From NCBI GenBank assembly GCA_964016885.1, contig OZ024761.1, forward strand, positions 22,072,001-22,136,000: a stretch of 64,000 bases of DNA, in the 5' to 3' direction. Numbering within the stretch: position 1 is the first letter of the stretch; each line of letters starts with the position of its first letter. Under the pieces are notes generated by a model. It searched no databases, was not told the DNA's origin, and saw nothing but the letters and a program-made list of their open reading frames with translations. Positions 2,728-61,129 of this stretch are shown piece by piece. This DNA is from Eledone cirrhosa (Eukaryota). A program made the translations under genes and the position numbers.

Positions 2728-2782
2728 ACTGCTATATATATTTTGGTGACAGCCATCATTGGCTGTGACCTCTTCAGGCAGT
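2728..2782 (-). ncRNA. Type I hammerhead ribozyme, G12A-decayed
   Basis: ACUGC-CUGAAGA-GGUcACAGCCA(AUGA)UGGCUGUcACC-AAAA-UAUAUA-UA-GCAGU; GAAA reads AAAA. Confidence 0.75.
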
Positions 2783-3210
2783 CTGAATTGGTGTGGTAGA
2801 GACAGGTACACTTGTTGTTGAAGTGTTTTACTCCGTCAATACTCCGATATGTCCAGCTCCTGGTTGGGTTGTTATTTCTCTGAGGAACTGGAATCATATG
2901 AATTCGAACAAACGAATTTCGGAGTCGTAGGACTCTCTCTCCTCCCATTGGTCAGTTGAGAGAACATTCCTCAGTCAGAAGTCTATAGAAATGTTTCTGA
3001 GTCAAGACAATCTGTTGTGGTTGTTTTTTGTTAAGTACAGCTGACCTCCTCCCTTGTGTTGGTAGTGGTATTGGTGTTAAGGGGTCAGCTGGCAGGTCAG
3101 CTTTAGTTCGGCTGCTGCTATGTTCAGAAGAACATAGAAATATATATATACAGTATATAAAACGACAATAAAGGCTATACTGGAAGATATGCTGTAAAAT
3201 TTAATTCCGT

Positions 3211-3291
3211 GAAATTACAATATATATTTCAATGGTCCAGCTCCATCATCCAAATATGATGGAAGACAGGACAGTCTCATCAGGTAACTTC
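3211..3291 (-). ncRNA. Type I hammerhead ribozyme, intact core
   Basis: GAAGUUAC-CUGAUGA-long stem II (GUCC/GGAC, UCCAUCAU/AUGAUGGA)-GAAA-UAUAUA-UU-GUAAUUUC; 8-bp stem I. Confidence 0.8.
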
Positions 3292-3554
3292 GACAGAATT
3301 ACAAAAACATAGTTATATACATTATTATTACTATATATATATATATATATAGATGTGTGTGTGTGTATATATACCTGTTACTGGCAGTGTGTGTGTCTAT
3401 GTATCTGCTAGTGTCAGTATAAATGTATGTATGTACCAGCTAGTAACAGTATATGTGTGTGTTATGTTGGTATTCTATGTTTTACTGCTGTGTTGTTGTA
3501 TTTACCCCAGTTTTCTATGTTTATAAAAACTGACCTTAAGTTGTTGTGTTCTAG

Positions 3555-3804
3555 GACAAGCTTCTTCTTGAACCATATGGGAAGCCTCGTGATATTGCCT
3601 ATGTAGTCGTTTGTCCAGATAACGAATACATTGTGAAGAATGCAAGGTTTTTTTTCAAAGAATTAAGTACAATCTATGAGCTATGTCGGCTGGGCCGACA
3701 TTGTCCCATAACGAAGGTACTCCGTGATGGCATTCTCAAGGTAGGCCAATCTTCTGCCCAGAAATATGCTGATGAACCTATAGAAGACTGGTTTAATTAT
3801 ATTG
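3555..3804 (+). CDS. MED13: MED13 coding exon
   Basis: DKLLLEPYGKPRDIAYVVVCPDNEY...FFKELSTIYELCRLGRHCPI; ttctag| and |gtaagt. Confidence 0.95.
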
Positions 3805-3859
3805 GTAAGTGCTTTAAAGTTTTTTTTTTACAAAACCCTTTTTTTGTCCCTTGTTTTAA

Positions 3860-4053
3860 CCCTTTAGTATTTACATTACTCTATATTTACTTTTGTATTT
3901 TCACAGTAAACACTTTATCTTACAAAATATCGCACATAATATCGAATCAATGAGATTTTGATATTATTTATTTTGAGAACAATACTTTAACATCAGTATG
4001 ACTGGCCGGTGAGAGAAGTTTGGCCAGATACGGCTGGTTTAAATGCTAAAGGG
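3860..4053 (+). mobile_element. piggyBac-like MITE (194 bp)
   Basis: TTAA|CCCTTTAGTATTTA...TAAATGCTAAAGGG|TTAA; relatives at about 13640-13830, 17195-17411, 54350-54730 and 62572-62767. Confidence 0.85.
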
Positions 4054-56795: not shown

Positions 56796-56921
56796 AATGA
56801 CTTCTACAGGACTTAACCTGTTTCATTTGCATGAAATCATCAGGAATGCACATTCCATGTGATTGGACATTTCTGATGATTTCATACGAATGAAACAGTT
56901 CTAGTCCTGTAGAAGTCATTT
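56796..56921. repeat. Foldback with a degenerate hammerhead-like core in each arm
   Basis: atgacttctacaggact...agtcctgtagaagtcat; CUGAUGA..GAAACAG on both strands; related fragment at 24058-24100. Confidence 0.6.
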
Positions 56922-56967
56922 TTATATATAAAAATATATAAGTAAATATAGATACATACATATATAC

Positions 56968-57410
56968 AAAAGGCCAGTTATATGATGCCTGTGTGAGGTG
57001 CGCGATGCGGCATGGTAGTGAGACATGGGCAGCAACTGCAGAGGATATATGACGGCTGGAGAGAAATGAAGCAAGCATGCTCCATTGGATGTGCAATAGA
57101 TGAGTTGAGAGAGAAACTGTATAAGAGGGATAAGTTGTGGTGTGCAGGAGAGAAGACTGAGATGGTATGGACATGTGATGTGCATGGAGGATGACTGCTG
57201 GGTAAAGAAGTGCCAAGAAATCCCAGTAAAAGGAGGACGCAGTAGAGGAAGACCACGAAAAACATGGGCGGAGATGGTGAGAACAGACCTCAGATCACTG
57301 AAGCTCATAGTGGAGATGACGAAGGACCGTGACAAGTGGAGAGATGCTGCGCTGAATAGGATCCATCCCACCCTTGCAAGCAGGGAAAAGCGGACGTAAA
57401 ATGATGATGA
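56968..57410 (+). mobile_element. RTE LINE family B 3' fragment
   Basis: [12 protein letters not shown]...GRPRKTW...ASREKRT* followed by (GAT)n. Confidence 0.88.
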
Positions 57411-58271
57411 TATATATATATATACAATAAGTCAACGAGACTAGCATGGGTTTCACTGTTAGGACCGGTTGCATCTCAGCGTACTCAATAGGTAATGTTA
57501 AGTTAACTCGCAAAGTAGACACAGAGTTATTTGCTTCAATACAACACACGTAAATGCAGCAAGTGAGTGCACAGCATCCACGGTCTGCATTTATTATGCA
57601 ACAATGCACAATCGGTGCATGTGGCTTCATCAGTGGGTTTCGCCTAATCAATAACCAATCGATCGTGTGTGTGAATTTTGAATGGATGTCAGCTTAAAGT
57701 TGCTTCAATACAGTTTTTATTTTCACTATCAGCCCCTAAAAAAGGTGTGAGTTCCAATCCAACTGGTGACGCTGTCCACCTTCTTCTGTCACATACATAG
57801 ATACACATATTCACTGCTAAAGGCAAACTTGGAGGGTTGGAAAAAATAAAAAAAATTTTTTTCAAGGGAGAGTATTCGTTGGTTGGGAAACGTCTTGTAG
57901 GTTCGAATTTGGAGTAATGTCCCTTGCAAAATTGCCTCTTCAGACATTTTACAAATGAACAGAATGACAAGACTGGCGCAAAGTTGTTGGATATGGCGCA
58001 TTGCATCTTTACCGGTAACATTTCAAATTTTCTCAGAGAAGCACAAAACGGACAAACTAATCCTTCGTTTTGTTTTTATTTGTTGGTCATGTCCATAAAA
58101 TCTTATTAATTCATCAACAGACTGGTCAATTAAAATCTCCGGTAGCTACTAGATAGCTTCAGCGACTGACCCAGTCCTCGCTGCACTTGCTCAATAGACC
58201 CAACAATACAAGCTGTTGAAGTATCTATCGGCCGCTTTCTTCTGATAGGTTTGTCGTAGAACCTTTTAAGC

Positions 58272-58579
58272 CAGGGGTTCTCAAAGTGGGTGTTACTCCC
58301 CCTCCCCCGGTGGTCGTTAAGAAGGTCCAAGGGGTGGTAGGGATGATATAACTATATTAAGTATCAAATGATACATATATATAAATATAGTAATATATAT
58401 ATTTATTTATACATAGTATATATATATATAATTTATTATATATACATTGACGATTTTATTATATACTATTTACAATTTGCGTGTAGGCAGGTGTCTCTGG
58501 AAATAGGGTTGGGGGCCGCTGAGGGTACTACGTGGCCCTGGAGAGGGGGAAGTGGCCCCAAAAAGTCTGAGAACCTCCG
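58272..58579. mobile_element. hAT (Charlie/Buster-like) MITE
   Basis: CAGGGGTTCTCAAA...TCTGAGAACCTCCG; 8-bp TSD-like ttttaagc/ttgtaagt. Confidence 0.65.
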
Positions 58580-60889
58580 TTGTAAGTAGTGGAGGAGACT
58601 TCTGGTGTTCTCGATCACAGGAACATTTCAATATCTGTTGGTATATCGAAACGGAGTTGGCCACCCACAAGAGTTTGTAAATGATACCCGCCAGTTGGAA
58701 TGACTATTTCAACATGTCACCTTCGTTATCCTCCGGGAAAACCATTTCTCCATTCCGTCTGTTGGGACCACGAGGAGGTTTACGTCTGGGATTCTGTCCT
58801 CCAGAATTTATAACAAACTTACACTGTGGTTTGGTTTGTAAACTTGTGTGTCGTTTGGGACATATTAAGATGACAAGGGGGGTTAGTTTATAACCTAGTA
58901 CTGTTGGGTCACTCGGCATTACTGAAGACCCGACTCGGGGGTGTGTTGCTTGGGACATTAAGTTGGAAGGGGAAGAAACTGAGTTAAGACTCCTCTGTGA
59001 ACAGAAAAGTCCTGGACGAACTTGTGTGTTGTGTGAGGACCTTGGTTCTGGCAACGAGTGTTGCAAATTAACTCACAACTGGCTGAATATACCACTGGCA
59101 CGTGTAGCTTTAACTGGTATCGTCAACACCACCCCCACCACTACTACCACCACCACTACCACAACCCCCAACAACAACAATGAAAACAATTTAAACAAAA
59201 TACTTTTTTATTGTTATTATAATTACGTATGTATAAATATATATATACAGTTACCATAAGCTGTTGCTATATATACACAGGTCTTAAAAACAAAATCAGG
59301 GCAATTGTGGTTTTGGTTGGAGATTTAACCATTTCAAAATTGTCATTTTTCAATTTTTTTTTCGAAAATTTTAATTAAAAATTTTTTTTCGGAAATTTTA
59401 ATTTAAAATTATTTTTTTGGAAAATTTTAATTAAAATTTTTTTTTTCGAAAATTTTAATTTTGTATGTAATTATTTATCTTTTCCATTTTTTAAATATTT
59501 TTTTTCCGTTTTTTTTTCACTCGACAAAAAAAAATCACAGTTTTTTGATAAAACAAAGAAAGGAGATTGCTGAAGTTTAGAAAAATGGTGTTTCTTGCAT
59601 AGCTAAGCTATATTGTTGTTGATGCTGGTATTAAGTAGCATATCTGAAGCAAAGATGAGAGTCTGAGTAAGAGAGGCTTATGTCTATATGTAAAGTATCT
59701 ATACACAGATTAATTATACATACCCATATATATATACATACCTATATATATATACATATATATATATGTATATATATATATATATATGTATATATATATA
59801 TATACATATATATATATAACGAAGGAAATGTGGTAAGGAACCAGAAATGTGGTAAGGAACCGTCGAAACGGCTTGAGCTCAGCCGTCGGGGTCCTACTCG
59901 TTCCTATATATATATATACATATATATATATATATGTATGTATATAAATATATATGTATATAAATATATATGTATATAAATATATATGTATATAAATATA
60001 TATGTATATATATATATATGTATATAAATATATATGTATATAAATATATATGTATATATATATATATATACATATGTATATATATATATATACATATGTA
60101 TATATATATATATATACATATGTATATATATATATATATATGTATATATATATGTATATATATATATATACATATGTATATATATACATATGTATATATA
60201 TATCCATATGTATATGTATATATATACATATACATATGTATATATACATATACATATGTATATATATATATATATATATATACATATGTATATATATATA
60301 TATATATATATATGTATATATATATATGTATATATATATATGTATATATATATATGAATATATATATATGTATATATGTATATATATGTATATATATATA
60401 TGTATATATATATATGTATATATATATATGTATATATATATATATATATATATATGTATATATATATATATGTATATATATATATGTATATATATATGTA
60501 TATACATACACACACATATATATATTTATATACTAATTTTAAAAACACCAAAGAATTAATGTATCTCCAAACAAACATCTGTTTCAGTTGACCTCAACTT
60601 TGTCCCGGGGTTATAGAATCTCAAAATTTTCAAATTAAAAAAAAATTTTCTTCAAATAATTTTTATAAAAATTTTTTAAAGATTTATAATTTGAATTTCA
60701 GGAGTTGGTTCAAGGTCGGAGTCATAAAATTAGTGTATAACAGCTCTGTGTGAACCCCAGTGTATTGAGCTTCTAACCATCTGGTAAAGCAGTTTTAAAA
60801 CTCCATTTATTAATATTATTATTATTACTAATACTATTATATATATCAGAGTGTTGTTGTTTGTTGAAGCATTGTTGAATAGGAAACAC

Positions 60890-61129
60890 AAATTTAAATA
60901 ATTTTGAAAACTATACAATGCGCTAGAAAGAAAATCAATATTGCTAAGATAACAAAAGAATCTTACCTTAACAAATTTGATAATCACAAATATTTTTGGG
61001 TCTCATGGGGATACCCCCTTGATAATGGGTTTTTAAACCCGAAAATTTTCTAAGGTAAGATTCTTTTGTTATGTTAGCAATCTTGATTTTCTTTCTCGTG
61101 TATTGTAGGGTTTTCAAAATTATTCAAAT
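60890..61129. repeat. ~80-bp-arm inverted repeat enclosing a partial UUGAUAA hammerhead core
   Basis: Arms ..aacaaaagaatcttacctta / taaggtaagattcttttgtt..; spacer ttgataa-t-gggtt(ttta)aaccc-gaaa. Confidence 0.7.

Follow-up and report, generated by a model that had tools for sequence, protein, structure and literature searches.

A 64-kb stretch of the Eledone cirrhosa genome (the window) holds 16 sites noted as hammerhead ribozymes (HHRs), mostly in small islands within (TA)n microsatellites, which raises the question of whether these motifs are genuine and what kind of element placed them there. A first, sequence-only reading took them for a multi-family system of self-cleaving, non-coding retroelements driven by Penelope-like element (PLE) machinery. 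This kind of landscape is familiar: Hydra PLEs with an HHR and a (TA)n target have already been catalogued for Octopus, where a single Hydra family of 2.5 kb is described (Craig et al. 2021, PMC8557442). Our analysis indicates that the islands, each 100–500 bp of non-simple sequence, are very probably the HHR-bearing 3' ends of many PLE families plus one tandem retrozyme (retrozyme H), likely all inserted into (TA)n by PLE enzymes.

The window was searched with a strict descriptor consisting of CUGANGA, UUGANAA or UUGANGA, GAAA, UH, a stem I of at least 4 bp and a folded stem II. Seven of the 16 sites passed (cores at 3283−, 8987+, 32791−, 39325+, 44673−, 44826+ and 47244+), and in ~320 shuffles of the window with the (TA)n runs retained, strict matches were mostly absent and never exceeded 2. 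An earlier, tighter version of the descriptor found 5 window matches, where 146 shuffles averaged 0.01, and the initial descriptors, which tolerated neither bulges nor extra bases, found 2. Eight further sites have intact cores or intact family members: stems are weak but the core is intact at 7540, 33274 and 56865 (both arms), and the motifs at 2728, 29025, 53568, 56060 and 61015 are degraded in the window but intact in sister copies elsewhere in the genome. With 15 of the 16 sites belonging to genomic HHR families and a motif density above that of shuffles, the motifs are real, and their cores and stems I and II are those of minimal type I HHRs from many families, as had been claimed. Stem III is fully self-complementary in five of the seven strict matches, family A (GAAC) being the exception. 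The site at 36495 was not confirmed as an HHR; its family has a GAAA-palindrome-UC half only, and no 5' core was found. Each site is named here by the position first listed for it, which is the low end of its motif.

The strict descriptor was also applied to 54 spaced 10-kb samples of the genome (540 kb), where it gave 57 matches, compared with 0–7 in shuffles and with 7 per 64 kb in the window. The window is ordinary for this genome, and its HHR density is not special. With roughly one intact motif every 10 kb, we estimate ~0.2–0.45 million HHRs genome-wide, perhaps the highest hammerhead density counted so far; about 4,000–9,000 are reported for coelacanth and Xenopus, a rough comparison in which the descriptors differ. 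The enrichment next to (TA)n proposed earlier was found at both scales. (TA)6+ lies within 250 nt downstream of 10/16 window sites versus 25.8% of random window positions (p = 0.002, with approximate site positions), and (TA)n lies within 250 nt downstream of 47/57 sampled matches versus 16% at random, as well as upstream of 23/57. Of 18 RF00163 matches, ten loci were inspected, and every one of them terminates in (TA)n.

Could AT-rich, palindromic DNA have produced the motifs by chance? Individually, the folds are weak (z of −0.9 to −2.5), as this would predict, and Rfam offers nothing against it: the covariance-model check returned no HHR in the window at gathering score, two sites scanned individually matched no HHR family at E ≤ 10, and the best 150 of 376 matches held nothing but TA-driven miRNA noise. 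However, the comparison with shuffles, in the window and in the genome samples, already refutes the chance reading, to which we assign next to no probability; moreover, one core is common to families with differing stems. Matches with one core mismatch at 23562, 34833, 54177 and 24780 were put down to chance.

Table 1 HHR sites and associated elements in the window.
Feature	Coordinates	Strand	Details
HHR, family C (Hydra-type PLE 3' end)	2728..2782	−	island ~2678-3132; GAAA to AAAA
HHR, family F	3214..3288	−	core intact; no ORF or tandem copy in 1.5-kb flanks
Old decayed HHR	7538..7582	−	core letters intact, stems weak; family copies 70-85% identical
HHR with family B-like stems I and III	8982..9053	+	core intact
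HHR, family E (Neptune-type PLE 3' end)	29025..29061	+	GAAA to AAAA, one extra base
Retrozyme H copy, 5'-truncated, 321 nt	32634..32954	−	99% identical; short 3' end; (TA)n both sides
HHR of retrozyme H	32709..32796	−	UUGAUAA (U3-A8) core; palindromic stem III; predicted cut between 32714 and 32713
HHR, family D'	33274..33346	+	core intact, stems weak
Hairpin and GAAA half-core of dispersed family	36494..36536	−	
HHR, family B (Hydra-type PLE 3' end)	39317..39381	+	intact; island ~39054-39429
HHR, older family A variant	44635..44677	−	intact; island 44420-44744, long 3' end
HHR, family B variant	44818..44878	+	core intact; island ~44783-45016
Young PLE, family A, 5'-truncated	45041..47442	+	RT and GIY-YIG; short 3' end into (TA)n; one stop at 45959-45961; ORF end 46933; 98.9% to full copies
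HHR in family A PLE 3' end	47239..47283	+	intact
HHR, family G (Hydra-type PLE 3' end)	53567..53653	+	UUGAUAA core; U16.1 lost; island 53293-53677
Decayed family G HHR	56053..56146	−	5' core decayed
Palindrome with two family J HHRs	56772..56944	56802-56846 minus, 56870-56914 plus	cores intact, 3-bp stems
Family K HHR	61014..61049	+	UUGAUAA core; stem I 3' strand deleted; in palindrome 60892-61129

The HHR at 8982 lies inside a Med13 intron, sense to the gene. The island carrying the HHR at 44635 is 89% identical to the young family A element; this divergence, together with the (TA)n and the family B island between them, ruled out that this HHR is the inverted end of the neighboring PLE.

For nine of the 16 sites, longer copies of the same family extend through a common 3' UTR into PLE RT/endonuclease ORFs. 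Because the longer copies run into these ORFs, the nine sites are, as judged from sequence continuity, 5'-truncated 3' ends of coding PLEs of Hydra and Neptune/Nematis types. Families B, C and G continue into Hydra-type ORFs; two copies of B have 2,093 nt in common at 90% identity from ORF end to HHR, and the links of C and G cover 1,511 nt at 91% and 1,470 nt at 86%, respectively. Families A and E continue into Neptune/Nematis-type ORFs. Clades were assigned by protein motifs, not by tree, with Neptune and Nematis not separated for A and E. The Hydra marks DKT, RWR/RWL (an RWK-like motif) and CxCx5C were found and CCHH was absent; linker and EN were present in B (L150) and G (L201), the linker in C (L153), and DKT with RWR/RWL in the related ORFs L056, L155, L348 and L352. 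B, C and G also show the (TA)n insertion and the sense HHR downstream of the ORF that characterize the Hydra clade. Neptune/Nematis types were recognized by a CX2-5CxxC linker, CCHH in GIY-YIG and a DKG-like motif, and both A (CX4CxxC, DKSG, 1278-aa ORF) and E (CX4CxxC linker, DKG motif) were placed there. Unbroken PLE ORFs of 850–877 aa are present. No ORF link was found for families F, D', J, K and 7540, or for 24 of the 57 sampled matches. A tie of family J, which forms a separate palindrome, to the L056 ORF was ruled out, and one of family M to the L348 ORF was not supported.

The original view of the islands as a non-coding system stands for H (32709) and fails for the nine sites, which are truncated coding PLEs. 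In a broader form, most islands would be non-coding retroelements in their own right, whether SINE-like or retrozyme families, using PLE enzymes as H probably does; five window families have no ORF link, and short, non-coding copies are the majority in all families. This reading has to contend with the ORFs traced for 9/16 sites and with the structure of the copies, since the 3' ends are fixed and the 5' truncation points vary freely, with no fixed 5' boundary. In addition, same-strand tandems are absent within 1.5 kb in nine families, D, E, F, J and K among them. In a tandem-unit test that covered few loci per family and left out the D' and 7540 families, the 15 sites other than H failed as retrozymes, being ORF-linked (nine) or without tandems (D, F, J, K and I). 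We consider it distinctly unlikely that independent non-coding elements make up most islands, and favor PLE 3' ends.

Retrozyme H is, on the evidence of its DNA, a young non-coding tandem retrozyme. Its 591-nt unit occurs in dispersed arrays with 0–5 full units, and the HHR core and stems I and III are unchanged in 87 of 91 copies. The longest stop-free frames are 49 aa (sense) and 71 aa (antisense), with no PLE protein match, and no sequence match to PLEs or pLTRs was found in 2.0 Mb of loci, a set outside which some PLE families of the genome lie. The 5' junctions run into (TA)n or unrelated DNA. The predicted circle fold has z = −6.0, and the unit appears as a self-closing 620–621-nt contig in 2 of 4 runs of unspecified kind, an appearance that a collapsed DNA tandem would share and that is given no weight here.

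Insertion junctions were compared at H and B loci taken as best query matches rather than a random draw, the B query stopping at the short end. All 46 H insertions examined end in (TA)n, and 45 use just two fixed 3' ends. Direct H insertions have (TA)n at the 3' end in 22/22 cases and also at the 5' end in 17/22, with 13 using the short end and 9 the long one. Inverted H insertions have (TA)n on both sides (24/24) and combine one short with one long end in 23/24, with no same-end pairs (p ~6e-8); the same combination occurs in 16/17 family B palindromes. The two arms of inverted H insertions agree at all 15 polymorphic sites (22 of 24 loci have shared sites). The short and long ends are 60 nt apart in A, about 90 nt in B and 165 nt in H, and a few bases matching (TA)n directly follow both ends in A and H and the short end in B. 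The earlier reading was right in its inverted ends and in naming PLE machinery, which is the likely driver.

We infer that a PLE reverse transcriptase primes one H RNA twice. In the mechanism we propose, the GIY-YIG endonuclease would nick both (TA)n strands, and the two 3' ends so exposed would each start reverse transcription of a single shared RNA, from one or the other of two dedicated internal sites. An early stop would leave a small HHR island in a split microsatellite; if both primers were extended, the two cDNAs would be joined head to head into a palindrome that pairs a short end with a long one. For H, the RNA copied would be a circle or multimer cut by the ribozyme, so that arrays would be born whole; the HHR is predicted probably to cut as a dimer via its palindromic stem III, and would be a passenger in most islands. 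Twin priming is a process of L1 elements. We regard as evenly poised the proposal that PLE enzymes write H into (TA)n by rolling-circle reverse transcription and twin priming, with each nicked strand assigned one of two dedicated sites on a single RNA, and that this rule also accounts for the PLE tail and the inverted pLTR in what is perhaps the most HHR-dense genome counted. For one PLE studied in vitro, both strands were nicked and extended and synthesis began at two internal sites, with no difference in start site observed between the strands and no target homology (PMC11167929). Units in the same H array differ by 0–3 bases, and pure rolling-circle copying predicts identical units.

The same elements could instead form palindromes by fold-back of a single cDNA or from two RNAs of an HHR dimer, with H arrays growing by unequal crossover after one insertion. 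Fold-back is compatible with 18/23 H palindromes, and endonuclease resolution has been proposed for the PLE tail (PMC8557442), but a single cDNA is unable to produce 5/23 H and 9/16 B palindromes, in which each arm has template missing from the other. Were two independent RNAs involved, mixed haplotypes and same-end pairs would be expected; H showed neither. Crossover has been proposed for arrays (bioRxiv 2026.07.22.740005) and fits the small differences inside them, but arrays terminate in phase at two sites. We find this combination of routes unlikely and retain twin priming on one RNA.

The PLEs resemble Hydra-clade elements, including Hydra-1_Obim of Octopus bimaculoides (PMC8557442), in the C-terminal GIY-YIG without CCHH, DKT, the CxCx5C linker, the sense HHR near the 3' end, the (TA)n target, inverted 5'-truncated copies and a one-end tail; an extra U flanks stem II on both sides, as in many Hydra HHRs. 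They differ in comprising many families, with ~5-kb units, 3' UTRs of 0.8–2.4 kb, a family B tail of ~90 nt and very high copy numbers. The HHRs reported for coelacanth and Xenopus have in common with ours a short palindromic stem III, an extra base after A9 and the U3-A8 variant, and both sets are mostly single copies from truncated PLEs with opposite-strand pairs. These results suggest that PLE ends may account for many of the (TA)n-bounded islands of octopod genomes.

Like animal non-LTR retrozymes (Cervera and De la Pena 2020, PMC7229834; Li, Clavereau, Pollet 2026, bioRxiv 2026.07.22.740005), H is a non-coding tandem unit with one type I HHR each, a GC content of 42%, a predicted strongly self-paired circle and co-occurring PLEs. 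It departs from them in its 591-nt length, U3-A8 core and octopod host, and in PLE junction marks at every insertion (TA target, two fixed ends, 5' inversion); homology to a PLE pLTR, present in part of the families of Li 2026, was not found for H in the 2.0 Mb of loci compared. Retrozyme use of PLE enzymes has so far only been proposed (PMC7229834; bioRxiv 2026.07.22.740005), the latter case being built on co-occurrence and pLTR homology. H displays insertion junctions directly, on a short, easily synthesised template. In literature searched mostly outside subscription papers, Repbase and Dfam, we found no account of a cephalopod retrozyme or of PLE twin priming. How PLE tails and inverted ends arise has not been settled in the literature (PMC8557442, PMC11167929), and the one-short-one-long rule is a sharp prediction, so that this question and that of retrozyme insertion by PLEs both become testable. 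As in Poseidon PAc in vitro (Frangieh et al. 2024, PMC11167929), both strands would be primed and two internal start sites define the tail, for family A inside the ORF start. In contrast to both Poseidon PAc and L1 twin priming, each strand of a genomic palindrome uses exactly one site, the sites show TA microhomology, and the arms may overlap on the template.

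The hammerhead ribozyme (HHR) islands of the window are real and mostly of a known kind, the 3' ends of Penelope-like elements (PLEs) in (TA)n, together with a new retrozyme member, H. HHR residues are numbered here by the usual convention. A strict descriptor was passed by 7 of the 16 sites, compared with mostly 0 and at most 2 matches in (TA)n-preserving shuffles; the sequence-only reading was right that about half keep the full core and stems. Eight further sites were judged genuine from genome relatives: three (7540, 33274, 56865) retain an intact core although their stems are weak, and five (2728, 29025, 53568, 56060, 61015) are damaged members of families intact elsewhere in the genome. 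The remaining site, 36495, shows a half-core only. The minimal HHR features used (an extra base after A9, the U3-A8 variant and a palindromic stem III) were taken from Cervera and De la Pena 2014 (PMC4209133). The 36495-type family (36494-36536 and four other loci, L037, L084, L119 and L178) is dispersed, with a conserved hairpin, a GAAA-CGCGCG-UC-like half-core and ends near (TA)n; CUGANGA was not found at these five places, and the family may represent either a non-canonical ribozyme or a half-core kind of PLE end.

In HHR density, the window is typical of its genome (3.0 Gb). Fifty-four evenly spaced 10-kb stretches (540 kb) gave 57 descriptor matches (shuffles 0-7, mostly 1-3), or 1.06 per 10 kb (bootstrap 0.67-1.5), extrapolating to ~0.2-0.45 million genome-wide. 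Comparison with published counts, in the sections available ~4,000-9,000 (PMC4209133) and ~5,000 for mussel, >6,000 for coral and as many as 120,000 for axolotl (PMC7229834), is rough because descriptors differ. The proposed (TA)n enrichment was borne out: (TA)6+ lay ≤250 nt downstream of 47/57 sampled matches and upstream of 23/57, against 16% for random positions. The window holds 167 (TA)6+ runs.

Most islands proved to be PLE 3' ends. Sites 47239 and 44635 make up family A, which derives from the 3' end of a PLE that is very young: the 124 matches scored, among 42,267 candidates, were all 99-100% identical. Its complete ORFs encode 1278 aa and include CCHH and a CX4CxxC linker, and tandem units have a 4.3-kb period. 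Families B (39317, 44818 and, judged by stem similarity, 8982), C (2728) and G (53568, 56060) continue through shared UTRs into Hydra-type ORFs, and E (29025) into a Neptune-type ORF. Copies share 3' ends and vary in 5' extent. The PLE protein of the window has its nearest relative in Octopus vulgaris (68% identity), which makes an octopod host probable. The sampled HHRs comprise 26 in ORF-linked families and 7 probably linked; the 24/57 without an ORF link are 22 in no assigned family and 2 of H. One Hydra-type family (L348 and L350, G000:C2:362468001- and C4:235264001-; 850-aa frames, 5.1-kb unit) has no descriptor HHR. PLE 3' ends in (TA)n are already known in kind; the portion seen of Craig et al. 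2021 (PMC8557442) describes HHRs and (TA)n targets in Hydra PLEs and lists Hydra-1_Obim from Octopus bimaculoides. The proposed multi-family system of non-coding retroelements survives at the retrozyme and gives way at the ORF-linked families A, B, C, E and G. Elsewhere, a near-perfect 4-kb palindrome (L044:700-4800; G000:C2:80000700-80004800) holds six descriptor HHRs of three families and other PLE ends, with (TA)n between, and looks like nested PLE ends copied jointly in a single inverted event, or an assembly fold-back.

The retrozyme segment in the window matches, at 99% identity, a 591-nt unit that occurs in dispersed arrays, lacks a long frame (GC 42%) and carries an HHR with a UUGAUAA core and a perfectly palindromic stem III. 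Its circle is predicted to be self-paired (z = -6.0, 60 shuffles). H was met by chance three times in 1.27 Mb of loci chosen for other reasons, besides its copy in the window, and once in the 540-kb sample, frequencies that point to thousands of insertions. We examined 46 distinct insertions, every one from best-match lists or chance. All 46 end in (TA)n, and in 45 the 3' ends fall at one or both of two positions, 80 (short) and ~245 nt (long) beyond the predicted cut; 5' ends vary, with 0-5 full units per insertion. H insertions bear the PLE marks of target, tail, truncation and inversion. Units within one array differ by 0-3 bases, which counts against a pure rolling-circle origin. As to H being new, the available text of bioRxiv 2026.07.22.740005 names no mollusc among its sampled genomes, and the main text of PMC13282606, as far as available, mentions neither hammerhead, ribozyme nor Hydra. 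Sequencing runs X1, X4, X5 and X6, which carry three organism codes between them, also contain near-identical copies of the H unit (locus L226:1255-1845); two of the runs give it as one self-closing contig (depth ~8), a picture that a collapsed DNA tandem would also produce.

The two ends follow a countable rule. Among direct H insertions, 13 terminate at the short end and 9 at the long end. Inverted ones combine one of each in 23/24 cases, never two alike (the remaining one is long plus aberrant). Family B inverted insertions are one-of-each in 16/17, and in family A the two ends recur, separated by 60 nt within the ORF start, with template ATAT after each. H palindrome arms are identical at 15 polymorphic sites (22/24 loci informative), a pointer to one template. 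A single cDNA folding back cannot have made 5/23 H and 9/16 B palindromes (the B count assumes a long linear unit), in which each arm has template sequence absent from the other. The simplest reading of these junctions is that one RNA would be primed twice, at two dedicated sites. Such twin priming is known from L1. The reading proposed for H and B agrees with PMC11167929, where a PLE in vitro nicked and extended both strands from two internal start sites; strand preference and target homology were not seen there, unlike the pattern here. With H and a countable junction rule, the mechanism becomes testable.

The HHR of truncated islands is most likely a passenger marking the PLE 3' end. The H core and stems I/III are unchanged in 87/91 copies, weak evidence of selection because the family is young. 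Published PLE HHRs, in the portions available, cleave weakly, as dimers or protein-aided, and are dispensable for insertion in vitro (PMC4209133, PMC11167929).

Among other window features, 3' ends of the LINE-like element recur at 2392, 13889, 29146 and 56992, often adjoining (TA)n. Two adjacent frames match no Pfam entry, and we take them to resemble a decayed DNA-transposon ORF. The young tandem arrays contain no HHR; several are assembled from dispersed-repeat pieces.

Features of the window by position and strand
Feature	Position	Strand
Med13 exons	3555-3953	
Med13 C-terminal exons	10218-17594	
LINE-like RT ORF, 804 aa, PHD-like finger, 5'-truncated	30033-32447	minus
Retrozyme H segment	32634-32954	
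Adjacent frames, 260 and 149 aa	34766-35949	plus
Family A 3'-end fragment	49039-49116	
Galactosyltransferase (PF01762) frame, 388 aa, uninterrupted	54714-55880	plus
Young tandem arrays (units 98, 40-80, 61, 72 nt)	12022-13228, 28110-28725, 37417-38578, 54346-54729, 1-246	
Additional short palindromes	39063-39154, 49088-49224, 51512-51663, 56340-56497
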